Positions 3,993-55,670 are shown, numbered from the stretch's first letter. The stretch: DNA of 64,000 bases from Candidatus Wolfebacteria bacterium GW2011_GWB1_47_1 (GCA_001029635.1 CP011209.1:811969-875968); one strand, 5' to 3'. Notes: generated from the letters alone by a model not told the origin. Translations and numbers: made by a program.

Positions 3993-5036
3993 TTACTTTA
4001 TCGAGTCCACATACAACCTCGTCTTGCTCGTATCAACTCTGTCTATTGGCACCGTCTTTGGGAATAGTATCTTGAATATTCGCTCTTCCGCGCCCCGTAG
4101 ATTATCCAACTCCGTTTTCGATCCGCCAACTTGTATACCCATCGCATCATAGAGCAATCCTGTGATCACTACCTTCGAGGCATCGCTAATGTCATCGTTC
4201 TTTATATTCCCATTGATCGAAACCGAACCATCCGGGCTAATGATTGCCTTAGTCACCCGTTCGATATCTGCATTTACATTAGTCCTTGTCTCTGCATCAA
4301 AGATGCCACTTTCGGGCGATATATTATTCGCCTTCTGATACGCCGTCAACGCAATCTTTGTATCCAAATCGAATGTCTCGTCACTCAACTTCATGAAGAA
4401 TTGTTTTTTGTACAGGAACTCTTCCAGCTTCTGCACATCCTCTCCGGTCGCCTTCATCGCAAGGTCCTTTGTAAATACATACAGCGGTTCAGTCACTATT
4501 CTTACGCCTACAACATCCGTTGAAGACCGTTTGATATTAACCCGTGGCTCGATAAAATCTTCCCTCGCAACCACCTCCGGAGCAGAAAATGTCATTACAA
4601 GATCATCAATCTCTTCAATTCCTGCGTCAATCGTGGCAACAACATATCGCCCGATCTTTGACGACCGATCGTAGAGAAATATGTGATCACTTGACGCTTT
4701 AATCGTCATTCCATTTTTGTCCGTTGCCGTGATCGTATAGGTTACATCCTTAAACCCAAATTCCCGATTTGGGTTTTCAAGATATGCAACAACCACCGTT
4801 CGCGTATCTCCTGCTGCAAACCTTGCGATAGAATCAACCCCTATGTCCTGTGCATACTTTTGGCCGCAGGGGGCACATCCGCCGCCACAATCGATGCCTG
4901 TTTCTGTTCCATTCTGCCTCGCGTCAAAGCATGTTGGCATTGATCTAAACAGTAATACATATCCGCTAAATATAATCGCTCCCCAAAATGCCAAAAATCC
5001 CACCCCGTATGTGAATCGTTTTAGTCCTCTACTCAT
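3993..5036 (-). CDS. Hypothetical membrane-anchored protein
   Basis: 347 aa ORF with an N-terminal TM helix and a CGGGCAPCG motif. No family recognised. Confidence 0.55.
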   Translation of the reverse strand: MSRGLKRFTYGVGFLAFWGAIIFSGYVLLFRSMPTCFDARQNGTETGIDCGGGCAPCGQKYAQDIGVDSIARFAAGDTRTVVVAYLENPNREFGFKDVTYTITATDKNGMTIKASSDHIFLYDRSSKIGRYVVATIDAGIEEIDDLVMTFSAPEVVAREDFIEPRVNIKRSSTDVVGVRIVTEPLYVFTKDLAMKATGEDVQKLEEFLYKKQFFMKLSDETFDLDTKIALTAYQKANNISPESGIFDAETRTNVNADIERVTKAIISPDGSVSINGNIKNDDISDASKVVITGLLYDAMGIQVGGSKTELDNLRGAEERIFKILFPKTVPIDRVDTSKTRLYVDSIK

Positions 5037-5169
5037 TACATTTCAGTATACCCTGAAATTTCTTTATCACAAAATCTATTGACTTTTCTATAAAAAATGG
5101 CATAATTTATTCAGTAATTTTTATCTCATTTTAGTGCTTCTTACTTATCAGCAAGAAAAGGAGACTCAC

Positions 5170-5730
5170 GTGAAGATCAAACGAAGCGGGTTTGTATATC
5201 GTTGTGCTTACGGACTCATGGATAAAGACGCGCGCCCCAGCACGGTCAATCTCTGCCCGCTCTTCTGGAAATTCGTTTTTATGTTCTTGCTTGGATGGTG
5301 GTTTTTCTTCCTTAGCTACATGATCGGATGTGTCATAATCGTCATAATCTACGTTTTTGGCTTTTTCTTCGCTGCGCGTCCCACAATATTTAAAGGCGAA
5401 GAGAATATCCTATTCCCAATGATGCATTATACAACGTGGCCCACAACGCCGAACGGCAAGCGCATCTGGCCGATCTGGTTCGTCCTCGGCGGACTTGCAA
5501 TCTGGCTTGCCTACGCAAAGAGAAGCGTTGCCACCTCTGCTGTCATCGACTTGGCAGCATCGCTCGCCGCACCCACCGCCTTCTGGAATGGTTTCGGTAT
5601 GACCGCAACCTGCTTCATTCTTTTCTCTCTTGGATATAAATTTTTAAAATCCGAATCCTGGCTACTGTTCAGATTCTGGTGCCGAGCGAAGAAAGAGAAG
5701 GTCTGCCCAATCATTGAAGTCGTCGACTGA
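5170..5730 (+). CDS. Hypothetical integral membrane protein
   Basis: A GTG start lies 7 nt after AGGAG (aaaggagactcacGTG). Multiple hydrophobic helices. The six-frame ORF 5134-5730 is trimmed to this start. Confidence 0.55.
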   Translation: MKIKRSGFVYRCAYGLMDKDARPSTVNLCPLFWKFVFMFLLGWWFFFLSYMIGCVIIVIIYVFGFFFAARPTIFKGEENILFPMMHYTTWPTTPNGKRIWPIWFVLGGLAIWLAYAKRSVATSAVIDLAASLAAPTAFWNGFGMTATCFILFSLGYKFLKSESWLLFRFWCRAKKEKVCPIIEVVD

Positions 5731-5778
5731 CGACACCCATGCGCCCCATCCGGGGCGCATTTTTCGTCTTTCTTATTT

Positions 5779-5803
5779 ATGTACGTCATCGGATGACGTA
5801 CAT
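5779..5803. promoter_or_regulatory. Perfect 25 bp palindrome ATGTACGTCAT-CGG-ATGACGTACAT, copy 1 of 3
   Basis: Exact inverted repeat with 11 bp arms. The same element occurs at 6576-6600 and 35791-35815. It lies 10-15 nt past the minus-strand terminator hairpin at 5825-5843. Confidence 0.6.
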
Positions 5804-5812
5804 ATTATTTTA

Positions 5813-5848
5813 TCAACAAAAAAAGGACCGCATCATGCGGTCCTAAAG
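5813..5848 (-). terminator. Rho-independent terminator for the DUF218 gene
   Basis: Hairpin ggaccgcatcatgcggtcc followed on the minus strand by a T-run. Confidence 0.6.
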
Positions 5849-5850
5849 GA

Positions 5851-6501
5851 TCAGGCTATACAATACAGTTTGACAGTTTGTACTGCTGAGCGTATATGCG
5901 GAGGTATCTCTACTGTCTCAATATCACCTTTTTCCGCATACTGATCCAATCGGTCAACCTCTGCCACAATTCGCATGAGGCGATCCCAAGAAAACCACTC
6001 GTCCTCCCGCATCTTAAATGCGCTTCCGTGCACGACGGTATTAGGGCATTGCTTTCGCAATGTAGCGCACGACCTGCGCAGGAGTAGCGGAATTGAGCAT
6101 GCGATGATCGTTTTTGGATCAATTCCCGCCGCTTTCCAAACCTCCATCCCTTTCTGCACATTCTCTAGGGAATTAGTTGATGTCTTCTCGAGAAGTATCG
6201 CTTCTTTAGGTATGCCACGCCCAATCATCAGTGCGGCATAGAAATCTGCCTCCGTTTCATACTCTCTCGGAATCCCACTTCCTCCCTTGCCCGCAATGAT
6301 GATGTGCCGTGCCTTGCCCATCTGCCACAGATACGCTGCTTGTTGTGCGACTCGCTGATCATAGTGGCCGAACACAACGATAATATCGGCATCCGGCAAC
6401 TCTTCGAATCGAGTATGCTCTGTGAAAAATTCCAGCAATTTCTTTGTCGCCGATTCCACCTGCATATTCATGGTGCATACCCCCTTCTTCTTTTTCCTCA
6501 T
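5851..6501 (-). CDS. YdcF/DUF218-family protein
   Basis: 216 aa with the DUF218-like pattern IIVVFGHYDQR...IIIAGKGG...EADFYAALMIGRGIPKEAILLEKTSTNSLEN. Confidence 0.55.
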   Translation of the reverse strand: MRKKKKGVCTMNMQVESATKKLLEFFTEHTRFEELPDADIIVVFGHYDQRVAQQAAYLWQMGKARHIIIAGKGGSGIPREYETEADFYAALMIGRGIPKEAILLEKTSTNSLENVQKGMEVWKAAGIDPKTIIACSIPLLLRRSCATLRKQCPNTVVHGSAFKMREDEWFSWDRLMRIVAEVDRLDQYAEKGDIETVEIPPHIRSAVQTVKLYCIA

Positions 6502-6575
6502 TTAAATTTCTGCCTTTGTCATACCATATCCTTGCCTATAAATCAAAATTTCCCGCGAGACTCAAGCTGCGCGAT

Positions 6576-6600
6576 ATGTACGTCATCGAATGACGTACAT
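6576..6600. promoter_or_regulatory. Perfect 25 bp palindrome ATGTACGTCAT-CGA-ATGACGTACAT, copy 2
   Basis: Same 11 bp arms as 5779-5803. It sits between the start of the DUF218 gene and the terminator of the next minus-strand gene. Confidence 0.6.
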
Positions 6601-6606
6601 ATTTTG

Positions 6607-6640
6607 CAACAAAAAGGAGCCGCGCTTGCGCGGCCCTTGC
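6607..6640 (-). terminator. Rho-independent terminator for gene 6650-7279
   Basis: Hairpin ggagccgcgcttgcgcggccc with a T-run on the minus strand. Confidence 0.55.
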
Positions 6641-6649
6641 GAGTTCTCC

Positions 6650-7279
6650 TTACCCGTTGTTGCTCCAGAAGGCGGAGCTTTTCTGCGGATCGATGAAGTC
6701 GAATTCCGGGAGGAGTGTCCCATCGGGGCGGGCGATCAGCATGTAGAAGTTGACGATCTCCTCCGTCATACAGGAAAGCATTCCTCCTGACTCCAGTAGC
6801 TTCGCGTTTTTTGCGAACACCCGACTTATACCGACCGCTTTACAGAGGTTATTAATGCTTTCGATGAACTTCTGTCGCTCGGACCCGCCACAGCTATTAA
6901 TCTGGGGAAAGCTTCGTCCGCTCGGATCGCCGTCAAACACCAGAAACCGCGCACGAAATTCGTGCACTTTAATCGCGAGTTGACCTAAGTCGATGCCGAT
7001 CGGGCAACCCCAAAGCAAAACACCGCAGCTGCGAAGCTTGCCGGACTTGCTCGTTACTAAGGAAACATTAAGGTCGCCCTTTTCCCAAACTGAATAGACC
7101 TTGATGGTGGAGTAAAAACGAGCGACGTCCTTCAGGTACATTTCGTCGCATACCAGCATTTCGATTGCCTGCTTATTTCTCTCTATTTCAGCCTGCAGTT
7201 TGACCTCTATTGCAATCAAGCGTTTAAACTCCTCGATCATATCGCGCTCCACCATAGCATCCTCCCGTATTTTTTCCAT
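6650..7279 (-). CDS. Hypothetical protein
   Basis: 209 aa ORF with an N-terminal coiled-coil-like region. No family recognised. Confidence 0.5.
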   Translation of the reverse strand: MEKIREDAMVERDMIEEFKRLIAIEVKLQAEIERNKQAIEMLVCDEMYLKDVARFYSTIKVYSVWEKGDLNVSLVTSKSGKLRSCGVLLWGCPIGIDLGQLAIKVHEFRARFLVFDGDPSGRSFPQINSCGGSERQKFIESINNLCKAVGISRVFAKNAKLLESGGMLSCMTEEIVNFYMLIARPDGTLLPEFDFIDPQKSSAFWSNNG

Positions 7280-7378: not shown

Positions 7379-7421
7379 TGCCGATAGTCGCGGACGATTA
7401 TTGGCAATGAATTCCAGGCGA

Positions 7422-7535
7422 AGCCTACTTTCCCCACCGGCGAACCAGTTAGTATCATCGGCGCTTATCACTTTTACCTCCGAGTTCGGAATGGGATCGA
7501 GTAGATCATGATAAGCTAAATCACCAGGAAATCAT
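7422..7535 (-). rRNA. rrf: 5S ribosomal RNA
   Basis: The reverse complement contains CCGAACTCGGAGGTAAAAGTGATAAGCGCCGATGATACTAACTGG...GGAAAGTAGGCTTCGCCTGGAAT, collinear with the E. coli 5S rRNA. Confidence 0.75.
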
Positions 7536-7594
7536 TGACAACAATCGAAACGCATATACTATCACCAACCATTTTATTTTTTGGGTTACTTTGC

Positions 7595-10688
<3,094 letters not shown>

Positions 10689-11020: not shown

Positions 11021-11485
11021 CTTATTTCCGGCAGATGTCGAACTCATCTTTTTCGTACTTTTTTAATAAAGTACGGCAAAAATCGCGAGCGGAATAAAAA
11101 CGTGGGCTGAGTTCAAAAATTTCTTACAAAACGAGACATCGCCCATCTATTGATGGGACCCGGATGCCTCGTTTTTGAGGAAATTTTTATTACTCAGCTG
11201 ATCCACGTTTTTACATGCTCGCAGACTCGGATTGCGGGGGCATCTATTCATCCAGTGTACCCCTGTTCGCTGCCACAGGATGCGGGAATTTTTGCGCTCA
11301 TTCTGATCGCTTTTTTACAGCTCGCAGATTTAATAAGGCAAAAAATATCCCAGCCTAATCTTCTCTCTTGCCCTGCTTCGTCGGTGCCGTTGAATACATA
11401 CCGTCACCGACGCTCCGGCGCGTTGCACGCTCTCCCACTCTCCGAGTAAACGAATAGAGAGCGTTTCGCTAGCAACGCCTAGTTA
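11021..11485. repeat. MITE-like repeat, family A, copy 2. Composite or nested copy.
   Basis: Order of parts: the X-start hairpin gtacttttttaataaagtac, a Y-module (cgcgagcggaataaaaa...tttttacatgctcgcagac), a second partial Y end (ttttgcgctcattctgatcgcttttttacagctcgcagat), then the X-tail with cgctagcaacgcctag. Confidence 0.6.
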
Positions 11486-15949: not shown

Positions 15950-16155
15950 ACTCCCCGCAGATGCGGGATTTATCTTCTCCCTACTTTTTTAGTAGAAGTA
16001 GGGCAAAAAGCGCGAGCAAACTAAAAATAGGACTAGGCTCAAAAATCTCTGACAAAATTAAAAATCACCCGTTTAGCAACAGGACCCAGATTTTTAATTT
16101 TTATGGAGATTTTCTTCGCCCACTTAACCCTATTTTTTACAGCTCGCAAATGGAA
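15950..16155. repeat. MITE-like repeat, family A, copy 3. Short variant: X-start hairpin plus Y-module.
   Basis: cgcagatgcggg...ctacttttttagtagaagtaggg followed by gcgcgagcaaactaaaaatag...cccgttt...gacccagatttttaatttt...ttttcttcgccca...ttttttacagctcgcaaat. Confidence 0.6.
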
Positions 16156-16192
16156 TACAAAAAGAGGCGCGATGCGCCTCTTTCGCATTTTC

Positions 16193-24227: not shown

Positions 24228-24300
24228 TTTGTCATTCCGGCGGAGGCCGGAATTTATTTTGATCTGGACCCCGGCCTCCGCCGGGGTGACAATTTGGTCC
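24228..24300. repeat. REP-like elements, family R, tandem inverted pair
   Basis: tgtcattccggcggaggccggaat ... ccccggcctccgccggggtgacaa. Confidence 0.6.
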
Positions 24301-30215: not shown

Positions 30216-31757
30216 TTATTGAGCCAATACCATTCCGTAATAGAATGCCATGTTCCTCGCAAAATATTCGTTCATCAATGGACTCATAAGTCGCTCCACA
30301 GGCGCATATGTATCCGTCAGAATAATGGTATCTTCATCCGTCATGGACCGATCAATACTTCGCTTTGCGAGAAATGCCCCATTTTCCCCTCGCAGTATCT
30401 TTGTTCGCAGTTCCTGCACACCAATGGGTATTTTCGTATTCACCCCCACTAGTACGATATTCTGCGCATCATATGCATCCGCACCAAAGGCAAAAACGTA
30501 ATAGTTTTCAAATACCAACCCGAATGTCTTTTCCATACTTTTAAAAAACTCTTCCCCCGCTCCTTTTCGTACCGAACTGAAGTTTACCGCAAATACTCCC
30601 CCTTCGTTTAGACGTGCTTTTGCTTCCTCAAAAAATTCTTTCGTCGCCATATGCCATGGTACTGAAATGAACGAATTATACGCATCAGAAAAAATGAGAT
30701 CATACCGTCTGTCCGTCTGACGCAAAAAATTTCTCCCGTCTCCCACTCTTTGCCGTACCGGATAGTCATTTAATTGAAAATACTCATCGGCGACCCGCTG
30801 TACCTTCGGATCAATCTCAACGGTCGTCACGTCAGCTCCTTTATAAAAATCGGCTAATTTTTTTGATAAGTCATACGACCCCCCGCCTATCACCAACATA
30901 TCCTGCATTCTCTCATGTATCGCGCCGAAGATCGGATATATTTCCGGATATGTCCCCAGATGCTGCCCCTCAACCCCCTCAACACTATGGGAATCCGTGT
31001 CGAGCAACAACATTCTTACCCTACCTCTATCTCCCAACTCTCTATCAATAATCCTGATCTTATAATATTCACTCTCCGCGGCAAACACGACCCCTCGTAC
31101 ATCCGCAAACAAATACATCGCGTAGGTCATCATCCCCACTATTGAGAACAGTAAACCGATCAATCCTATCGTCGTTTTTTTGATCCGAGCCAATACCATT
31201 GCATTGGTCAATACAAGCAGAGCCATCAGCAGTATCGTCGTCACGCTGCCGATATATCCGATAAAATAGAACCCCGTTAAAAATGTCCCCGCAATACTTC
31301 CCAACGACCATGCCGCCGATATCTGGCCTGATCGAATTCCTGTCGCATCGATGGTTTGCAAATGCAACTTCAGTATCCCCGGATAGAGCGTCCCGAAGAA
31401 CACTGCCGGAATAAAAAACAAAAGGAACGCCAACAAGATCGTTGTCATTGACATCGACAACCCCGAAAGTGCAACAATGGGGGAAAAATATGAGAACAGC
31501 GGTATAAAAAACGTTGCAACTGATGCCGCAATAAACAGCATTGCCAATGACCGATGAGACTTCTTTCGATCGATATACACTCCTCCTGCATAGTTCCCTA
31601 CCGCCATACCAAGTAGAATCACGCCAATAACCGACGTCCACGTATAGATGGACGATCCTACATATGGCGCCATCAGACGGGTAGCAATCAATTCGATCGT
31701 CATCAGCGCGAAACCCGCTATAAACGCCGATACAATCAATATATTTAACTTCTTCAT
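30216..31757 (-). CDS. speE: Polyamine aminopropyltransferase (spermidine synthase domain) fused to an N-terminal polytopic membrane domain
   Basis: C-terminal MLVIGGGSYDL...VTTVEIDPKV...DLIFSDAYN...GGVFAVNF are SpeE/class I methyltransferase-fold motifs. The N-terminal roughly 220 aa carries more than 6 TM helices. Confidence 0.7.
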   Translation of the reverse strand: MKKLNILIVSAFIAGFALMTIELIATRLMAPYVGSSIYTWTSVIGVILLGMAVGNYAGGVYIDRKKSHRSLAMLFIAASVATFFIPLFSYFSPIVALSGLSMSMTTILLAFLLFFIPAVFFGTLYPGILKLHLQTIDATGIRSGQISAAWSLGSIAGTFLTGFYFIGYIGSVTTILLMALLVLTNAMVLARIKKTTIGLIGLLFSIVGMMTYAMYLFADVRGVVFAAESEYYKIRIIDRELGDRGRVRMLLLDTDSHSVEGVEGQHLGTYPEIYPIFGAIHERMQDMLVIGGGSYDLSKKLADFYKGADVTTVEIDPKVQRVADEYFQLNDYPVRQRVGDGRNFLRQTDRRYDLIFSDAYNSFISVPWHMATKEFFEEAKARLNEGGVFAVNFSSVRKGAGEEFFKSMEKTFGLVFENYYVFAFGADAYDAQNIVLVGVNTKIPIGVQELRTKILRGENGAFLAKRSIDRSMTDEDTIILTDTYAPVERLMSPLMNEYFARNMAFYYGMVLAQ

Positions 31758-32551
31758 GAAAAAATCACCATTAGCTTGTAAATATCTTCCATAGAAAGAT
31801 CATGCGATCGCATCTTCGCGTCAAACCCAGCACGCTGCAGTGCTTCTATGATTACTTCTTTATCCCCGTCCTTTCCCGCAAGATTATTTATGATCGTCTT
31901 ACGCGGCTGTGAGAACAACTGTCTGATAAACGCATAGTACCGGATACTATCTCCTTCAGTCGGATGCACATCCAATCGAATGGTCGCACTATCAATCTTC
32001 GGTGGCGGATTAAAATCCTTCTTCGGTACAATATCGATAATCGATGCTGTCGCCCAATACTGCACACTTGCGGCGAGCAGGTTCATCTTCGGCGACTGTG
32101 CGCAAATGCGTTCGGCAACCTCTTTCTGAATCGTCATCACGACACGCATCGGCTTATGTTCCAATTCTTCGATCACCCGCAACAGGTATCCTGTTATATA
32201 GTAGGGAATATTTCCTGCGATCATGTAAGGCTCCCCTTGTCGCTCCAACTCTTCTACTACCATCGGCAACAATTCCAACGCGTTTCCTTCGATGACTTCA
32301 AACCCGGGGTGGATTCCCGCCTCCGCGGGAATGACAAAAGAAGCGAATTTTTCCTTCAATGGTTCGATCAGTGCCTTATCGCGCTCAAGTGCCGTCACTC
32401 GCGCTCCAGCTTCTAAAAGATATTGTGTCAGCTCGCCATGACCTGGACCAACTTCAATAACAACACTGTCCCTTGTTATTTCAAGTGCATCCGATACCTT
32501 CTTTAACTTCTCCAAATTGATCAAAAAATGTTGTCCAAGCTTTTGTCCCAT
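31754..32551 (-). CDS. rsmA: 16S rRNA (adenine1518/1519-N6)-dimethyltransferase
   Basis: QHFLIN, VIEVGPGHGELT and GNIPYYIT motifs. It carries an in-frame REP-like insertion encoding IPAEAGIH at 32322-32348. Confidence 0.85.
   Translation of the reverse strand: MGQKLGQHFLINLEKLKKVSDALEITRDSVVIEVGPGHGELTQYLLEAGARVTALERDKALIEPLKEKFASFVIPAEAGIHPGFEVIEGNALELLPMVVEELERQGEPYMIAGNIPYYITGYLLRVIEELEHKPMRVVMTIQKEVAERICAQSPKMNLLAASVQYWATASIIDIVPKKDFNPPPKIDSATIRLDVHPTEGDSIRYYAFIRQLFSQPRKTIINNLAGKDGDKEVIIEALQRAGFDAKMRSHDLSMEDIYKLMVIFS
32322..32348. repeat. REP-like element, family R, embedded in-frame in the ksgA/rsmA coding sequence
   Basis: ggattcccgcctccgcgggaatgacaaaag, translated as IPAEAGIH. The same peptide appears when the intergenic copies are translated. 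Confidence 0.55.
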
Positions 32552-32591: not shown

Positions 32592-32720
32592 AGCACCTGT
32601 ATACAACGTTTGTCCGCCGACTGGCGGACAAACGTTGTATGTTTTTTATCAGGCAATCCCAATTATCTCTGCACCTATTCGGCAATAAAAATTCGGCAGA
32701 TGCCTGCCGAATTTTTATTG
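32592..32720. promoter_or_regulatory. Two long perfect hairpins between pcrA and ksgA
   Basis: atacaacgtttgtccgcc-gact-ggcggacaaacgttgtat followed by a T-run, and ttcggcaataaaaattcggcag-atg-cctgccgaatttttattgccgaa with a 22 bp stem. Confidence 0.5.
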
Positions 32721-32763
32721 CCGAACTCCATATTCCCTTTTTCCTTTTCCTTTTTCCACCCTC

Positions 32764-34557
32764 TTAATCCATATCAATATATCGCTCTTCATCATCAAAT
32801 CCCCTCCCTCCTTCAAATTCCATCAATCCCGATGGGATTTCGCTCAAAAATCGTGATGGCAAATGATAGAAGGTCAGATACAGTTCCTTACGCGCACGAG
32901 TCATCGCCACGTACATCAAGCGCCGTTCTTCTTCTATCTCATTTTCATTATGATACGACATCTGGTGCGGCAGCAATCCATCATTCACACCGATCACGAA
33001 TACCGCATCGAATTCCAAACCTTTTGCCATATGGATGGTCATCAAGTTCACGACACTGTCCTGCACCTTCTTGAGATCCTTCTTCTTTACCGTATCAGTT
33101 GATTCGAGCAGCGAGATACGCTCCAAGAAGTCTTCCATCTTCTCGAATCCGCTCGCAAACTCGATAAGCTCCTTGATGTTTTCAATGCGTTCGGTCGAAT
33201 TAGTCTGCGTGCGCTCGATATAATTGAAGTAATCGGTCGTCATCAAGATGTATCCGATCAACTCCACCGGTCGCAGTACCGCCGCTTTACTCGGCAGCTC
33301 CTCCTTGAGTTGTGTATACGGCTTCTTGAGGAAGCTCTTTTTGAGACGATCGAGACTTACGCTGTCCTGCGGATTGGACCCATATCGCAATGCGGCCACG
33401 ATATCCTTGATCTCCTTGCGTTCGTAGAACTTCAACCCTCCAAATATCCGATATGATAGTCCCCGCTCGATCAGCGCCTGCTCAATAGCACGTGACTGCG
33501 CGTTTGTGCGATAGAGAATCGCAATCGAGCCATAATCCGAGAACATGCGAATCGTATCAATGTGCCCGGCTATCCATTCCGCTTCTCCGTCAGCCGTATA
33601 TTGTTCAACTACCTTCACGCGCCCTCCTTCGGGGTTGTTCGTCCACAGCGTCTTCGACTTCTGTAAATGATTATGCGCGATGACCGCCGATGCCGCTTTA
33701 ATGATGTTTTGCGTCGAACGATAATTCTCTTCGAGTAATACCACTTTCGCATCCGGCCAATCCTTTTCGAAGTTCAAGAAGTTTCGGAAGTCCGACCCAC
33801 GAAATTTGAAGATTGATTGTTGGTCGTCTCCCACTACACTCAGATTACGATATTTATTTGCCAACAATTTAATAAGCGTATATTGAGCTGTGTTGGTGTC
33901 CTGGTATTCGTCTACCAAGATGTAGCGGAATTTTTCCTGATACTGGTCCAATATCTCCGGGTTGCCCAAAAACAACATTCCCGGTTTTTGGATTAGGTCG
34001 TCAAAGTCGAATGCATTGTTCGCCTGCAGTGCCTGCTCGTAGAGTTTAAATAGCTTATAGACGGTTTCATCTTCCGCCGCTTCCGGGTCGATCATCTCGT
34101 CCTTGATCTTTGAGAACTCGCGCCGTAAGACCAATGGCGTTAACCGCTTTACATCGCGCTCAGAAAGTCCCGCCCCGGCAGCCACCTTTTTGATCAATGA
34201 CTTACTGTCGTCCGCATCGAAGATGGTGTAGTTCGAGTTTCTCCCGAATAGCCGCGCCTCCTTCTTCAATATCCGCGCTCCAAATGAGTGGAACGTGCCC
34301 AAGAACATCGCCTTAAACGATTCCTTGTCCTGCGCAAGCAGCTTTTCCGTGCGCTCCTTCATTTCTCCCGCCGCCTTGTTCGTAAAGGTGATGGCGACGA
34401 TATTCTCCGGCTTCACGCCGCTGTGCAACAAAGCAGCCAACCGGCTCGTCAGTGTCTTAGTCTTCCCCGATCCTGCACCCGCAACGATCAAGAGCGGGCC
34501 TTCGCCATGTTCCACCGCCGCGCGTTGTTTATCATTCAATTCTTCAAAATGTATCAT
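32764..34557 (-). CDS. pcrA: UvrD/PcrA-family ATP-dependent DNA helicase. Short form, 597 aa.
   Basis: Walker A AGAGSGKTKTLTSR and the UvrD helicase motif series. It lacks the extended C-terminal domain. Confidence 0.8.
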   Translation of the reverse strand: MIHFEELNDKQRAAVEHGEGPLLIVAGAGSGKTKTLTSRLAALLHSGVKPENIVAITFTNKAAGEMKERTEKLLAQDKESFKAMFLGTFHSFGARILKKEARLFGRNSNYTIFDADDSKSLIKKVAAGAGLSERDVKRLTPLVLRREFSKIKDEMIDPEAAEDETVYKLFKLYEQALQANNAFDFDDLIQKPGMLFLGNPEILDQYQEKFRYILVDEYQDTNTAQYTLIKLLANKYRNLSVVGDDQQSIFKFRGSDFRNFLNFEKDWPDAKVVLLEENYRSTQNIIKAASAVIAHNHLQKSKTLWTNNPEGGRVKVVEQYTADGEAEWIAGHIDTIRMFSDYGSIAILYRTNAQSRAIEQALIERGLSYRIFGGLKFYERKEIKDIVAALRYGSNPQDSVSLDRLKKSFLKKPYTQLKEELPSKAAVLRPVELIGYILMTTDYFNYIERTQTNSTERIENIKELIEFASGFEKMEDFLERISLLESTDTVKKKDLKKVQDSVVNLMTIHMAKGLEFDAVFVIGVNDGLLPHQMSYHNENEIEEERRLMYVAMTRARKELYLTFYHLPSRFLSEIPSGLMEFEGGRGFDDEERYIDMD

Positions 34558-34664: not shown

Positions 34665-34975
34665 CCCGCAGATGCGAGCTCATCTTTTTCGTACTTTTTT
34701 AGTAAAAGTACGGCCGTCGGCTCCGTGCAGGAAAAAATACTACGCCGACATGCCGGCACGTTGCATGCGATCCGTCAGCTCGCGGATCGCTAGCAACGCC
34801 AAGGCTCAAAGCGCGAGCAAAGTAAAAATAGAGAGTGGACTCTAAAATTTCTTACAAAACTAAAAATTACCCGTTTTCCCAACGGGACCCAGATTTTTAG
34901 TTTTTGATGAAATTTTCTTCGCCCATCTAATCTCTATTTTTACAGCTCGCAGATAAAATGCGCTTCAGCACTTTC
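34665..34975. repeat. MITE-like repeat, family A, copy 4. Most complete, taken as the canonical copy.
   Basis: gcagatgcgagctcatc...gtacttttttagtaaaagtac...cgctagcaacgccaagg...gcgcgagcaaagtaaaaatag...cccgttttcccaacgggacccagatttttag...ttttcttcgccca...tttttacagctcgcagata. The ends are imperfect inverted repeats (cagatgcgagct / agctcgcagat). Confidence 0.65.
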
Positions 34976-35119: not shown

Positions 35120-35584
35120 CTACTTAACAAATAGTACGTTGGACGAGAGCCATACCGCATTCTCGCTCCAATACTCCTCAAATGCTTCTTGAGACTCGGT
35201 CCACTCGTCCATCGCCTGCATGTACTCTTCTTCGAGTTCTCCCATGAGCGCAAGTAGGGCCTTGTCTCTGGCGTGAAACCTGATCGCATTCCCCGCCTCT
35301 TCCACAACGATCCCGTTTGGGAGTAATACGAACAGGCTTGAATTAAAGAGTACTCCTGGGAGAGCGTTTTCGACCTCCGCTGCTACTTCGTCGAAGTAGC
35401 CGTCTTCATTTACTTCCAGAATCTCGTACGCCTTTTTATTGAGGTACGAGCGCTCCGCCTGGGTGATATTCCCAAACAAGAGTTTCTTCCCAATCCCACA
35501 TAATCTCCTGATCTTTTCCTGGATTGCGGCTGGTGCGTCTTCAAACTTCCTATCACTCCTAAAATATTCCTCAAACGTTTTCAT
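35120..35584 (-). CDS. Hypothetical protein
   Basis: 154 aa acidic ORF. No family recognised. Confidence 0.45.
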   Translation of the reverse strand: MKTFEEYFRSDRKFEDAPAAIQEKIRRLCGIGKKLLFGNITQAERSYLNKKAYEILEVNEDGYFDEVAAEVENALPGVLFNSSLFVLLPNGIVVEEAGNAIRFHARDKALLALMGELEEEYMQAMDEWTESQEAFEEYWSENAVWLSSNVLFVK

Positions 35585-35790
35585 ACTGCCTCCTCTTTCC
35601 TTTAAGATTTAACAGCGCATTTCTCTGCTGCTCCCAATGAGCAGCAGAGAAAATGACTGCCAAATCCCGCATGTGGTTTTCAATGTTCTTGTTATATTTA
35701 TATCATAATTATTATAAATTGTCAATGTCTTCGCTTGAAGGGGGTGCCCTGGACCTCATCCTTCGCCGAAATGAAATGACAGATAAAAAA

Positions 35791-35815
35791 ATGTACGTCA
35801 TCGGATGACGTACAT
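35791..35815. promoter_or_regulatory. Perfect 25 bp palindrome ATGTACGTCAT-CGG-ATGACGTACAT, copy 3
   Basis: Identical to the 5779-5803 copy. Intergenic, between a hypothetical gene and comM. Confidence 0.6.
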
Positions 35816-35985
35816 TTTAAACTATAGATCCCTCGGTTCCGTTCCACTCCGCTTCACTCGAGATGACACACTCCGTCATTCCGAGCTCGGCCCTCGGCGT
35901 TACTAGCGAGTGCAGCGAGTATGCAACGTGCCAAAATACTCGAGGCACATAAGGTCCCGCGCTTCGCATGTCGAGGAATCTGCTT

Positions 35986-37518
35986 TTATATTTCCCTTAT
36001 CCTATATTGAAATGCTTCGCTCAGGTGGTTATTAGTAACCTTGTCGGACCCTTCGAGGTCCGCTATCGTGCGCGCCGTCTTGAGCATGCGGTAATAGCCA
36101 CGAGCGGAGATGAACGATTTTTCGAGCATCCTTTTTACAAATTGTTTTCCTGCATCATCCAATTGCACTACCTTATCCGCCAATTTCGATGGCATCTCGG
36201 CATTTGTATAGATCCTTGGTATTATATCCGTAAAACGACGAGCCTGTATCAGGCGGGCGTTTAGTACCTGTTCGCGGACCGCGTCACTTTCATCTGATTC
36301 CTTTTCCTTGGATAATTCCTCTATCTTTACCCTTGGCACTTTTATCTGTATATCTATGCGATCGAGCAATGGCCCGGAAAGCTTACGCTGATAGCGTGCG
36401 ATTTCGTGTGCGCCACACTGACACGTCTTTTCTTCGTCACCGTAGTATCCGCATGGGCATGGGTTCATTGCCGCGACTAATGTAAATCGAGCCGGAAACT
36501 TCAATACGCTCTTTGCACGCGCGACGCATACATCCCCATTTTCGAGTGGCTGTCGTAATGATTCGAGCAGATCCCGCCGGAACTCCGGTAACTCATCCAA
36601 AAACAATACACCCCGGTGCGCAAGCGATATCTCTCCCGGGCGCGGATTTGCACCGCCCCCAATGACCGATGCCGGCGATGCGCTGTGATGTGGCGCTCGA
36701 AACGGGCGCGTCATTGCAAGCACATCGCTATTAGCGATCCCCGCCGCACTATATATCTGCATCACCTCCATAGCCTCGTCCACCACTAGCGGAGGCAAAA
36801 TAGAAACCAATGCTTGTGCCAGCATTGTCTTTCCCGCTCCCGGTGAACCACTCATCAGTAGATTGTGCCCACCCGCCGCTGCGATCATCAGCGCACGTTT
36901 TGCATTCATTTGTCCTTTTATCTCGGAAATGTCAGTGCTATATCTTGCCGTATCCCACTCCAGCTTCGTCAGTGGATACGGTTCGATCAGCACACGCCCT
37001 TCCAGATGATCGATTAATGTCACCATATCAGTAATTGGGATCACATCAACTCCACTCACAATCGCAGCTTCTTGCGCATTTTCTACGGGAATAAATACCT
37101 TGGCTATATGCAACTCCTTTGCGAGACGAGCAATCGCGAGCGCACCTTTTATCGAACGTGCCTTCCCATCAAGCGATAACTCGCCAATAAAGAGCTTATC
37201 AGCCGTTTCGAATTCCTTAATCTGCTTGGTTGCCAACAAATATCCCATCGCTATTGCGAGATCATATTGCGACCCCGCCTTTTTGATATCCGCCGGGGCA
37301 AGATTTACCGTAATTCTTCTATTTTCTCGATTGGGCGGTTTTATATTCGAGTTCTTCAATGCGGCGTTGACCCGCTCCTTTGCCTCGTTTAGTGCCTTGT
37401 CGGCAAGACCCACAATTGTAAACGAATGAAGACCGACGTTTATGTCGGTCTCCACTTCGATTAATTTTGCTTCAATCCCCTCAAGTTCTGCCGAGTATAC
37501 CTTTGAGAAGTGTTCCAT
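35986..37518 (-). CDS. comM: Mg-chelatase-like AAA+ ATPase, YifB/ComM family
   Basis: Walker A LMSGSPGAGKTMLAQA and conserved ComM/YifB blocks (NRENRRITVNLAPADIKKAGSQYDLAIAMG...). Confidence 0.8.
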   Translation of the reverse strand: MEHFSKVYSAELEGIEAKLIEVETDINVGLHSFTIVGLADKALNEAKERVNAALKNSNIKPPNRENRRITVNLAPADIKKAGSQYDLAIAMGYLLATKQIKEFETADKLFIGELSLDGKARSIKGALAIARLAKELHIAKVFIPVENAQEAAIVSGVDVIPITDMVTLIDHLEGRVLIEPYPLTKLEWDTARYSTDISEIKGQMNAKRALMIAAAGGHNLLMSGSPGAGKTMLAQALVSILPPLVVDEAMEVMQIYSAAGIANSDVLAMTRPFRAPHHSASPASVIGGGANPRPGEISLAHRGVLFLDELPEFRRDLLESLRQPLENGDVCVARAKSVLKFPARFTLVAAMNPCPCGYYGDEEKTCQCGAHEIARYQRKLSGPLLDRIDIQIKVPRVKIEELSKEKESDESDAVREQVLNARLIQARRFTDIIPRIYTNAEMPSKLADKVVQLDDAGKQFVKRMLEKSFISARGYYRMLKTARTIADLEGSDKVTNNHLSEAFQYRIREI

Positions 37519-37540: not shown

Positions 37541-37572
37541 TAGAAAAACTGGATTCCGGCCTCCGCCGGAAT
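37541..37572. repeat. REP-like element, family R
   Basis: ctggattccggcctccgccggaatgacacagaaaac. Confidence 0.6.
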
Positions 37573-37586
37573 GACACAGAAAACTC

Positions 37587-39218: not shown

Positions 39219-39382
39219 GTTGGTTGGATTGGGGAGTAAATACGGGGATGTTTATATTCTTTCCCTCTGTTCGTAGTCTGCCGTGCCCACAGCCGAATCG
39301 CGCCGCCTACTAGCGGCTGCGATTCTATGAGGCACACAAACGCAAAACCGACATTCATTCGAATGTCGGTTTTGCGTTTGTG

Positions 39383-39454
39383 TGCCCCCAAGGAGAATCG
39401 GACTCCTCTTTACAGGATGAAAACCTGTTGTCCTGACCACTAGACGATGGGGGC
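39383..39454 (-). tRNA. tRNA-Glu (anticodon UUC)
   Basis: GCCCCCATCGTCTAGTGGTCAGGACAACAGGTTTTCATCCTGTAAAGAGGAGTCCGATTCTCCTTGGGGGCA. It has a 7 bp acceptor stem, a TTTTCAT anticodon loop and a GTCCGATTC T-loop. Confidence 0.8.
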
Positions 39455-40114: not shown

Positions 40115-41617
40115 ATGAGCCAACAGAGATTTTTTGAGATCCTTCCGGGAGTTCTTTCCTGGTCTACATTACTTGCCATCGTTATATTGTCTTGGATCTA
40201 TCCGGTCTTTATGGCGGTATTCATCATTTTCTTCGATATTTATTGGTTCCTTAAAACCCTCTACCTATCCATCCACCTCCGCATTAGTTACCACCGAATG
40301 AATACCAATATGAAGGTTGATTGGCTCGCAAAACTGAAGGCAGACCCGACAACCAATACCTGGGACCAATTCTATCATGTTCTGATCTTTCCCTTCTATA
40401 AAGAGCCGTACGAGGTCATCAGGGAAACCTTTGATGCCCTTATTAAGGGTAACTACCCGATGGATAAATTTATCGTCGTTCTTGCTGCCGAAGGACGCGC
40501 CGGTGACCAGGCACAGACCGTAGCAAAACAACTCGAACAGGAGTTTGCGAACCATTTCTTTAAATTCCTAATTACCACACACCCGCAAGACCTGCCCGGC
40601 GAAATTCCCGGGAAGGGCTCAAATGAAACGTGGTCCATCAAGCAGACTAAGGAATTAATCATTGATCCGCTCGCCATTGATTATAACAAAATCCTGGTAT
40701 CTATTTTTGATTGCGACACGCAGATCTTCCCGAACTACTTCGGCATATTGACGCACACCTTCCTGACAACCGAGGACAATCTGCACGCCAGCTACCTACC
40801 TGTGCCGTTCTTCCTGAACAACATCTTCCAGGCTCCGGCACTGGCACGCGTCATTTCCTTCTCCGCATCGGTCTACCATATGATGCAGCAGGCGCGCCCG
40901 CATCGACTCACCACCTTCTCCTCGCACACCATCCCCTTCAAGGTACTTGTCGACGTTGGTTATTATAAAACGAATATCGTGAACGAGGATTCTCATATTT
41001 TTTGGCAATCCTATATTCACTACAACGGCAACTATCGCACCATCCCGCTAAACTACCCCGTCTCCATGGATGCGAACGTAGCTCCGACATTCTGGCGTAC
41101 TATGGTTAATCAGTACAAGCAACAGCAACGCTGGGCATGGGGTGGTGTCGAGAATATTCCGTTCTTTATGCGGGGGTTTATTAAGAACAAAAAGATCCCC
41201 TTCAAGCGTCGCTTCTCCTGGGCGTTCTTCTACATTGAAGGTTTTCACTCCTGGGCGACTAATGCCCTAATTATCTTCACTCTTTCTTGGCTCCCTATCG
41301 CTATTGGCGGGCCGGAATTCCGATTCTCGCTTCTTTCCTACTCCCTGCCAAAGGTGACTAATATGATTATGAACTTTGCGGCCATTGGTATCCTTACCTC
41401 TGCATTCCTTGGTATCGTATTACTCCCGCCAAAGCCGATCTGGTTCAAAAAGTACCACTACATCTGGTATGTTCTCCAATGGATGTTCCTTCCTATCACC
41501 ATGATTATATTCGGATCCATTCCCGCATTGGATTCGCAGACTCGTGGAATCTTGGGTGGCAAATATCGTCTTGGGTTTTGGGTCACACCAAAGCATCGAG
41601 AATCAAAAAATCCCTAA
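40115..41617 (+). CDS. Family 2 glycosyltransferase, membrane-embedded processive type (cellulose-synthase-like)
   Basis: 500 aa. DCD motif (SIFDCDTQ) and QxxRW motif (QQQRWAWG). TM helices flank the catalytic domain. Confidence 0.7.
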   Translation: MSQQRFFEILPGVLSWSTLLAIVILSWIYPVFMAVFIIFFDIYWFLKTLYLSIHLRISYHRMNTNMKVDWLAKLKADPTTNTWDQFYHVLIFPFYKEPYEVIRETFDALIKGNYPMDKFIVVLAAEGRAGDQAQTVAKQLEQEFANHFFKFLITTHPQDLPGEIPGKGSNETWSIKQTKELIIDPLAIDYNKILVSIFDCDTQIFPNYFGILTHTFLTTEDNLHASYLPVPFFLNNIFQAPALARVISFSASVYHMMQQARPHRLTTFSSHTIPFKVLVDVGYYKTNIVNEDSHIFWQSYIHYNGNYRTIPLNYPVSMDANVAPTFWRTMVNQYKQQQRWAWGGVENIPFFMRGFIKNKKIPFKRRFSWAFFYIEGFHSWATNALIIFTLSWLPIAIGGPEFRFSLLSYSLPKVTNMIMNFAAIGILTSAFLGIVLLPPKPIWFKKYHYIWYVLQWMFLPITMIIFGSIPALDSQTRGILGGKYRLGFWVTPKHRESKNP

Positions 41618-41632
41618 CGGGATTTTTTGATT
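41603..41632. terminator. Bidirectional terminator between convergent genes
   Basis: aaaaatccctaacgggattttttg. Confidence 0.6.
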
Positions 41633-41656
41633 CTCGATGCAATTTCAAATTTTAAA

Positions 41657-43930: not shown

Positions 43931-44063
43931 GCACCCGCTTCGCACTTCTCCACTTCGTTCCGCAGTGCTCGGGGGTGGGCTCAATTGAACCATAGCTCCG
44001 CTGGTTCGATCCCACGATACATAAAAGAATACCCAGGCCGATTGGCCTGGGTATTCTTTTATG

Positions 44064-44135
44064 TGCCCCTGTGTGGAATCGAACCACAATTTTAACTTCC
44101 GCAAAGTCATGTCCTATCCATTGAACGACAAGGGC
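44064..44135 (-). tRNA. tRNA-Arg (anticodon GCG as read; the D-arm is identical to the other Arg tRNAs)
   Basis: GCCCTTGTCGTTCAATGGATAGGACATGACTTTGCGGAAGTTAAAATTGTGGTTCGATTCCACACAGGGGCA, with anticodon loop TTGCGGA. Confidence 0.65.
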
Positions 44136-52162: not shown

Positions 52163-52200
52163 GAATGACGGGATACTGGATTTCCGCCTTCGCGAGAATG
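52163..52200. repeat. REP-like element, family R
   Basis: actggatttccgccttcgcgagaatgacaaaacgg. Confidence 0.5.
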
Positions 52201-52226
52201 ACAAAACGGCATAATGATGATGACAT

Positions 52227-55635: not shown

Positions 55636-55670
55636 TCACTGGTAGATCCCCGCCTTCGCGGGGATGACAC
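55636..55670. repeat. REP-like element, family R
   Basis: ggtagatccccgccttcgcggggatgacactccgtg. Confidence 0.55.

Follow-up and report, generated by a model that had tools for sequence, protein, structure and literature searches.

A 64-kb stretch of the genome of Candidatus Wolfebacteria bacterium GW2011_GWB1_47_1 (CP011209.1:811969-875968; hereafter the window) carries three copies of a perfect 25-bp palindrome, ATGTACGTCAT-N3-ATGACGTACAT. We consider it likely that these palindromes are an element of the REP/RAYT type (repetitive extragenic palindrome and REP-associated tyrosine transposase), in which a REP-like hairpin is cognate to a single-copy, RAYT-like Y1 (HUH) gene, here in bacteria of the Candidate Phyla Radiation (CPR). 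Full-text literature searches turned up no account of REP/RAYT in the CPR. To our knowledge, nearly all work on RAYTs and their REP or REPIN partners concerns Proteobacteria, with repeats in the hundreds, and what the two do for the cell is an unresolved question in the field.

Hairpins bracketing a Y1/HUH gene

All nine orthologs of the Y1-like gene whose genomic context was fetched (loci L015, L038, L040, L041, L045, L046, L047, L050 and L051) are bracketed by hairpins of one design, at ~75 nt or closer. At L015, in Wolfebacteria RIFOXYB1_FULL_54_12 (hereafter RIFOXYB1), it is the window's own palindrome that lies 17 nt past the stop and again directly before the start of a gene of 229-242 aa, with a third copy 225 bp further. 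In the other eight orthologs the upstream hairpin is ~10-75 nt from the start and the downstream one 0-30 nt from the stop, and the stems are lineage-specific (Table 1). The shared plan consists of an AT-rich foot, three to five variable complementary pairs, a (C)GTC/GAC(G) or GAC/GTC closure and a 7-nt centre, which is either asymmetric (TTGCGAT or its complement ATCGCAA) or symmetric (ATCNGAT, ATYSRAT or GTCNGAC), the palindrome of the window being of the symmetric type. The asymmetric centre may be read as a T.T or A.A mismatch, followed by a T-A pair and a 3-nt loop. Across 29 distinct hairpins, seven of the nine stem pairs vary on both sides and none on one side only, a count that is partly circular in that only hairpins with perfect stems of 7 bp or more entered the set. 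In five of the nine orthologs there is moreover an internal, in-frame copy of the ortholog's own lineage-specific hairpin at codons ~49-62, within a variable linker of low model confidence; in the protein of the window's genome this internal hairpin encodes the peptide 'ANFPSFDDGKLE'.

The encoded protein is ~228 aa long, including a C-terminal extension of ~90 aa. In Pfam the L015 protein falls under Y1_Tnp ('transposase IS200-like') with 39 bits (cutoff 23; E 1e-9), and its best NCBIfam match is REP_Tyr_transpos (REP-associated tyrosine transposase, NF047646). Among 35 homologs, NHYH (the HUH motif) and YIHLNP (the tyrosine motif) vary little or not at all. An AlphaFold model (pLDDT 65 overall and 80-93 in the core, with moderate confidence outside the catalytic core) retrieved hairpin-binding Y1 transposases as all 30 of its best PDB fold matches, including ISDra2, IS608, IS200, a Sulfolobus enzyme and the E. 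coli TnpA-REP 4ER8; the match to ISDra2 at the sequence level is remote (E 6e-4). The family counts 4302 homologs in the protein collection. Among the 120 homologs listed almost all have 221-259 aa and share at least 55% identity with the query, and every homolog source that names an organism is from Wolfebacteria, Parcubacteria, Paceibacterota or the 'Patescibacteria group'. A scan of viral contigs for the family gave no match.

The genome of the window, which comes from groundwater, has such a gene as well. Two window proteins match AKM78623 and AKM78622 exactly (locus tag UX70_C0001G0913), and the ortholog P0006 (AKM78360, UX70_C0001G0649; 75% identical to the L015 protein) shares their UX70_C0001 locus-tag series, which places it in the same genome, ~260 genes apart. 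At the P0006 locus (L038/L039) a sister palindrome, TTCCGTCAT-N3-ATGACGGAA, occurs before the start, inside the open reading frame (ORF) and at the stop, and has the centre CGTCAT-N3-ATGACG in common with the palindrome of the window; 140 nt upstream of the gene there is also CATGTACGTC-TTGCGAT-GACGTACATG, which combines the window arms with an asymmetric loop.

Single genomes hold several different stems, each perfectly self-complementary, around the same centre (at least six stem types in RIFOXYB1), which fits recognition of a structure rather than of a half-site in double-stranded DNA. The earlier note suggested that the palindrome could be the operator of a dimeric regulator. On such a reading the three sites would form a small regulon, for example of a DNA-repair or SOS-like kind, given that comM and uvrD are nearby and that uvrABC lies beside the Y1 gene. 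Perfect dyad symmetry around a variable centre is indeed found in many operators, and the arms are kept in genomes with locus G+C values between 0.34 and 0.52. A DUF218 gene has copy 2 just ahead of its promoter region, and copy 3 is ~60 nt upstream of a promoter-like site for the gene at 35120-35584, which is followed by uvrD. However, copy 1 sits between convergent terminators where there is no promoter, none of the sites overlaps a -35/-10 element, and neither the window nor ~474 kb of fetched DNA contains degenerate sites. An operator also accounts poorly for six or more stems in one genome, or for sites that bracket, and lie in frame within, a Y1 transposase-like gene. As the earlier note had already observed near the window copies, no regulator gene is adjacent, and this holds at every locus fetched, the neighbouring genes being unrelated to one another. 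We therefore regard an operator as very unlikely, and the resemblance of the half-site to a CRE/TGACGTCA core has no role in the explanation we favour. What the earlier note had set against its own proposal, a generic REP or mobile palindrome, is in essence what was found, though at low copy number.

The Y1-like gene appears on the same number of contigs as the single-copy gene comM (26 each). The order uvrB-uvrA-MFS-gene-x-uvrC is kept at L038 and L040, and the shorter contig of L050 agrees over MFS-gene-x-uvrC, in three genomes whose proteins are 74-76% identical to that of L015. Contig counts and synteny together suggest that the gene is stationary and single-copy, and not IS-like. These three loci (L038:4187-13318, L040:228-8397 and L050:1-5583) place the gene of a predicted single-strand DNA-processing enzyme within a nucleotide-excision-repair neighbourhood. 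The fetched loci, ~474 kb in all, contain no second copy apart from one paralog of 27-29% identity. This paralog (L021:6757-7479, in the same genome as L015) scores 72.6 bits against REP_Tyr_transpos and is nearer to canonical RAYTs; no flanking hairpins were detected around it, and it lies 3.4 kb from a hairpin cluster, near GIY-YIG and LAGLIDADG-like ORFs.

The same data speak to another possibility, that the hairpins are the ends or footprints of an autonomous IS200-like insertion sequence and not of a domesticated REP/RAYT system. The gene and its flanking hairpins span ~800 bp, which is the size of IS200, the best matches in both structure and sequence are IS200/IS605 transposases, and in more distant genomes the gene is found in differing neighbourhoods. 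Nevertheless, the evidence points to one gene copy per genome and to conserved synteny among the three genomes above; the tyrosine motif is Y---NP, of class 2 or TnpA-REP type, and not the Y---Q of IS200 (PMC6006769 Table 1); the C-terminal extension brings the protein to ~228 aa where a short one of ~150 aa would be expected; and solo hairpins occur without any remnant of the gene. We accordingly give an insertion sequence very little credence.

Beyond the bracketed gene, the palindrome is dispersed. A scan of one genome per species, with a 3-nt centre, found the exact palindrome 12 times on four contigs (739 kb) of RIFOXYB1. The exact arms recur in at least three further distinct metagenome sequences (L019, L027, L031/L037 and L032; locus G+C 0.34-0.47). 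The centre varies (CGG, CGA, CAG, CTG, TCG, TGA or TCA) while the 22 arm positions are invariant, which bears out the view in the earlier note that the arms are under constraint. Counting redundant contigs, the ~474 kb of fetched DNA holds 46 exact copies of the family and no copy with one to four mismatches, save one variant with a different loop. Sites are intergenic and most lie within 75 nt of the 3' end of a gene, a placement that is typical of REPs; two reported overlaps with ORFs (L012 and L013) fall within DNA dense in repeats and seem spurious. Proteobacteria, Acidobacteria and other groups have matches with a 1-nt spacer, each occurring once per genome with unrelated flanks, where ~3 chance matches are expected, and these were deemed unrelated.

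A few perfectly conserved palindromes per genome, common to several species, might also be the mark of a signal for chromosome organisation or DNA uptake, of the parS, matS or DNA uptake sequence (DUS) type. We think this extremely improbable: the RIFOXYB1 copies are spread over all four large contigs and are not clustered, they are much too sparse for an uptake signal and half-sites never stand alone, and in either case the link to the Y1 gene is left unexplained.

In a low-G+C island of the other Wolfebacteria genome, RIFOXYB1, the palindrome belongs to a longer module that is itself repeated (L001:2740-2830 and 4010-4100, L008:2361-2450). There it is followed by a bidirectional terminator and a promoter-like TTGGTTA...TAAGAT, and the module sits ahead of successive genes, which include DUF3800, RhuM and zeta-toxin.

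Copies in the window and at orthologous sites

The earlier note had reported three identical palindromes in the window, and their coordinates and centres (Table 1) are confirmed: a search for ATGTACGTCATNNNATGACGTACAT that permitted up to three mismatches still returned exactly three matches, against a chance expectation of 0.00 in 100 shuffles. The 11-nt half-site occurs exactly six times, always within the three palindromes, and with one mismatch it has one match where 1.0 is expected. No degenerate copies were found in the window, the next-best 25-mer having seven mismatches, nor any spacer variants or lone half-sites of the kind that a degenerate operator or uptake pattern would show. Under a covariance model of the wider hairpin family the three palindromes score 33-42 bits and no other site is comparable, the next matches (17.5 bits or less) being ordinary terminators with A/T flanks. 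As single-stranded DNA the three copies fold into stems of 12-14 bp with 3-nt loops (-10.7 to -13.3 kcal/mol, z -4.6 to -8.5; copy 1, -10.7 kcal/mol, z -8.4), and the palindrome is fully symmetric, so that both strands give the same hairpin. An Rfam scan of the window returned rRNA and tRNA genes only, with no match at the palindromes. The window as a whole has a G+C of ~0.47 and a uniformly negative GC skew, and contains 23S and 5S rRNA genes and ten tRNA genes.

Table 1. Coordinates and sequences of the palindromes, hairpins, terminator-like sites and degenerate repeats discussed in the text; positions without a locus prefix are those of the window.
Feature	Position	Strand	Description
Palindrome copy 1	core 5779-5803, paired 5778-5804	.	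centre CGG; 12-bp stem and 3-nt loop as single-stranded DNA
Palindrome copy 2	core 6576-6600, paired 6574-6602	.	centre CGA
Palindrome copy 3	core 35791-35815, paired 35788-35818	.	centre CGG; A4/T4 extension gives 14-bp stem
Intrinsic-terminator-like hairpin, gene 5134-5730	5739-5760	+	copy 1 begins ~18 nt past it
Intrinsic-terminator-like hairpin, DUF218 gene (5851-6501, minus)	5824-5844	-	copy 1 is 14 nt past its T-tract
Intrinsic-terminator-like hairpin, gene 6650-7279 (minus)	6617-6636	-	copy 2 is ~8 nt past its T-tract
T-rich tract TTTATCTGTC	35778-35787	-	after the TTTT of the stem, 3' of copy 3; from terminator scan; with copy 3, terminator-like site for comM
Flanking hairpins, L038			TTTTCCGTC-ATCGAAT-GACGGAAAA
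Flanking hairpins, L040 and L050			ATATTATCGTC-TTGCGAT-GACGATAATAT (also with loop reverse complement ATCGCAA) and ATATTTGCGTC-TTGCGAT-GACGCAAATAT
Flanking hairpins, L041			TAAGGAC-ATCGCAA/TTGCGAT-GTCCTTA
Flanking hairpins, L045			TATCGAC-GTCNGAC-GTCGATA
Flanking hairpins, L046			TATGGAC-GTCNGAC-GTCCATA
Flanking hairpins, L047			TAACGAC-TTGCGAT-GTCGTTA
Flanking hairpins, L051			as L047, one mismatch
Internal in-frame hairpin	L038:10158-10190
Internal in-frame hairpin	L041:6147-6167
Internal in-frame hairpin	L045:10145-10175
Internal in-frame hairpin	L046:10153-10173
Internal in-frame hairpin	L047:6345-6365
CTGGATTCCGGCCTCCGCCGGAATGACA family copy	24264-24291
CTGGATTCCGGCCTCCGCCGGAATGACA family copy	32309-32336
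CTGGATTCCGGCCTCCGCCGGAATGACA family copy	35749-35776
CTGGATTCCGGCCTCCGCCGGAATGACA family copy	37549-37576
CTGGATTCCGGCCTCCGCCGGAATGACA family copy	52176-52203
CTGGATTCCGGCCTCCGCCGGAATGACA family copy	55642-55669

The three copies all lie in intergenic DNA. Copy 1 separates two convergent genes (5134-5730 and the DUF218 gene) and is past the terminators of both, and copy 2 follows the terminator of gene 6650-7279 and precedes the DUF218 promoter region, 75 nt upstream of the start of the longest DUF218 ORF (6501); the positions given in the earlier note for these two, past a minus-strand terminator and upstream of the DUF218 start, are therefore correct. The 23S and 5S rRNA genes are on the minus strand (7413-10666) with no 16S gene adjacent in the window, and gene 6650-7279 and then DUF218 come directly downstream of the 5S gene. 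Copy 3 separates comM (35986-37518, minus), 171 nt upstream of it, from gene 35120-35584, 207 nt downstream of it. A consensus scan flagged copy 3 as terminator-like (RNA fold -18.2 kcal/mol), and in RIFOXYB1 (L034) a hairpin and T-tract are found in the same layout, 6 nt past the comM stop. Because the T-tract is on the comM strand in both species, and no other terminator-like site was detected between comM and the hairpin in either the window or L034, copy 3 is probably the transcription terminator of comM, as far as can be told from sequence. Copy 1 was also flagged as terminator-like, on the plus strand, whereas copy 2 is without a T-tract; the stems are GC-poor throughout.

It could then be asked whether the palindrome is simply an RNA element, a terminator or 3'-end stabiliser selected and spread for the benefit of the host, and unconnected to the Y1 protein. 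Copy 3 and its L034 ortholog, as a hairpin and T-tract past comM, speak for such an element, to which may be added the terminator-like character of copy 1 on the plus strand, RNA hairpins of -15 to -23 kcal/mol, and the position of most copies near gene 3' ends. On the other hand, copies 1 and 2 are probably transcribed only rarely, lying as they do past canonical GC-rich terminators. Termination needs no sequence identity across unrelated genes, and the other terminator hairpins of the window all differ from one another in sequence. Nor does an RNA element explain the bracketing of the Y1 gene, the internal copies or the conserved 7-nt centre. The stable RNA hairpin offered in the earlier note thus probably holds for copy 3 as a terminator but not for copies 1 and 2, and it leaves the link to the gene unaccounted for. 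As the whole explanation we judge an RNA element unlikely, though an RNA role would be compatible with a REP/RAYT-type element as a secondary, co-opted function.

Counterparts of the three copies in other genomes give some view of their history. The positional ortholog of copy 3 (L005:448 / L034:6503) lies directly downstream of comM in RIFOXYB1, whose comM is 85% identical to that of the window in amino acids and 76.6% in nucleotides; of the downstream spacer only AAAATGTACGTCAT-N3-ATGACGTACATTTTT-TAT aligns across the species, and the remainder is unalignable. At the site of copy 2, L048, from a related genome, has a DUF218 gene 73% identical to that of the window and the same order of upstream gene, terminator, hairpin, and conserved DUF218 promoter and leader, but its hairpin is ATATTTGCGTC-TTGCGAT-GACGCAAATAT, the type found right after the stop of the RAYT-like gene in L040. 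Compared with copy 2 this involves three fully compensated stem changes (GTA/TAC to TTG/CAA) and a changed loop; a common sequencing run, G+C and hairpin type suggest that L048 and L040 may belong to the same genome. Copy 1 has no counterpart in L048 or L049 and is lineage-specific, no hairpin being present at the corresponding side of DUF218 in these loci, and L049 has a hairpin on neither side. The history of the three copies is therefore one of long persistence, of change in concert with the hairpins that flank the gene, and of polymorphism in presence or absence. A close strain (L044, 99.5% identical) has the palindrome and is hence uninformative as an empty site. We also entertained, and ruled out, a mobile DUF218 cassette between two palindromes: the synteny DUF218-x-PG_binding-ValRS is kept in L048 and L049, and the hairpins vary independently of it.

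Other repeats occur in the window. A second, degenerate palindromic family, CTGGATTCCGGCCTCCGCCGGAATGACA, has copies that are 68-86% identical to each other (Table 1); one is within the ksgA/rsmA ORF (31754-32551), where it encodes 'VIPAEAGIH', and another is only 15 nt from palindrome copy 3. An element of CTGGATTCCGGCCTCCGCCGGAATGACA type adjoins ATGTACGTCAT palindromes in the other Wolfebacteria genome, RIFOXYB1, too (L012 and L013). An intergenic module of ~290 nt occurs three times (11039-11335, 15965-16157 and 34675-34960; 60-94% identity in pieces); its last copy lies shortly before the start of uvrD/pcrA (32764-34557, minus). The module could be a common leader or promoter, or a small RNA. 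Finally, there are several unusually long, perfect, intergenic palindromes with arms of 18-26 bp and A-run/T-run feet, each of them unique (32601-32640, 32678-32725, 39331-39386, 41593-41640 and 44019-44064), which are probably bidirectional terminators.

Proposed mechanism and points against it

The hairpin proper is a perfect stem of 9-14 bp ending in ...ACGTC/GACGT..., with a 7-nt centre ATCNGAT that can close to a 3-nt loop. By analogy with the TnpA of IS608 and ISDra2 and with E. coli TnpA-REP, we hypothesize that the Y1-like enzyme would bind it in single-stranded DNA, for example at the replication fork. Nicking and rejoining of the DNA beside the hairpin would follow, and in this way the enzyme may seed, replace or homogenise copies at places where they are tolerated, such as the short spacers past gene 3' ends and terminators. 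Settled copies might be co-opted by the host, and copy 3 with its T-tract most likely ends comM transcription in this way. Binding, cleavage and mobilisation by the enzyme are here inferred from its predicted fold and from related systems. Near-variants are lacking and the symmetry is perfect, so that recent transposition is no more likely an origin of the present copies than selection or homogenisation by the enzyme.

It is important to note that several observations sit less comfortably with a REP/RAYT-type element. The L015 protein reaches 33.6 bits against the NCBIfam RAYT model NF047646, below its cutoff of 80, and its sequence similarity to the solved TnpA-REP (4ER8) is remote (E 0.21). 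By tblastn there is no RAYT-like gene in the window, and the gene elsewhere in the same genome is flanked by a sister of the palindrome and not by the exact palindrome; if that enzyme recognises the copies in the window, it would do so through the central 15 bp that the two palindromes have in common. Copy number is low, with 3 in the 64 kb of the window and 12 in the 739 kb of RIFOXYB1, where classical REPs have tens to hundreds. The hairpins are perfect and symmetric, unlike known REPs, and have no conserved 5' guide tetranucleotide such as GTAG, their flanks being merely AT-rich and extending the pairing. The 46 copies are also without a mutational cloud, which strong selection fits at least as well as recent transposition does.

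It is tempting to speculate further that a domesticated Y1/HUH enzyme found across Patescibacteria keeps ~10-20 perfect hairpins per genome at gene ends, whose stems switch in concert with those that bracket the gene and lie within it, through replacement or homogenisation in situ, and with a function for the host and autoregulation through the internal hairpin. We offer this wider picture tentatively, and as a whole think it less likely than not. If true, concerted stem switching would imply that copies are replaced or homogenised where they stand and not simply transposed; the function for the host might be termination or insulation in compact genomes, or processing of replication forks, and the internal hairpin might serve autoregulation.

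The system combines streamlined CPR genomes of ~1 Mb, each with about a dozen hairpins, with a widespread enzyme family and a recurring layout: one hairpin upstream, one just past the stop and, in some lineages, one inside the gene. It is thus small and countable, and suited to following the co-evolution of hairpin and enzyme and to asking whether copies have roles for the host, such as termination. For annotation, it accounts for a recurrent 'mystery palindrome' of Wolfebacteria and counsels caution against reading such palindromes as regulator sites.

Comparison with known systems

The closest parallels are the REP/RAYT systems or REPtrons, such as E. coli YafM (PDB 4ER8) and the REPINs of Pseudomonas, in which a single-copy Y1/HUH gene is likewise bracketed by short extragenic palindromes (PMC3116915, PMC5581495, PMC6006769). 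The likeness extends to further palindromes that are dispersed, mostly past genes, to the co-evolution of hairpin and gene, and to copies kept at orthologous sites. In contrast to these systems, the hairpins described here are perfect, lack a guide tetranucleotide (GTAG or another) at the foot and form no REPIN doublets, and the host belongs to the CPR, with only ~10-20 copies per ~0.7-1 Mb. The CGTC of our hairpins differs from REP tags (PMC3733652) in that it is paired at the top of the stem and is not a terminal tag.

Judged by motif and length, the protein would fit TnpA-Y1 subclass 2.1 (Bertels group 1; 'TIRYT', Di Nocera et al. 2013), with which it shares NH[YF]H, Y[IV]HLNP and a C-terminal 'SS' motif; the median length of that subclass is 238 aa (PMC6006769 Table 1), compared with ~228 aa here. 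Inverted repeats that are self-complementary, and moderate in copy number, flank some TIRYT genes (PMC3733652); the subclass was reported to be without REP-like hairpins near the gene (Quentin et al. 2018, PMC6006769). Its terminal inverted repeats carry GGGGWSAS, whereas every ortholog in our set has flanking hairpins, with a centre of TTGCGAT type. The internal, in-frame hairpins recall TnpA-REP subclass 2.4 of Cyanobacteria and Bacteroidetes, in which REPs are inserted inside the tnpA-REP gene (PMC6006769); that subclass differs in its motifs (NH[IFV]H and YIxNNP) and in its REPs, which are of a 'long, double foot' type.

With IS200/IS605 elements such as IS608 and ISDra2, finally, the Y1-like protein shares a catalytic fold that reads subterminal hairpins on single strands, and the mismatch under the 3-nt loop of the TTGCGAT variants may recall the irregular hairpins read by those enzymes. 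The gene described here departs from them in that it is not multicopy, is not accompanied by tnpB, encodes Y---NP in place of Y---Q and a protein ~90 aa longer, and resides in conserved synteny.

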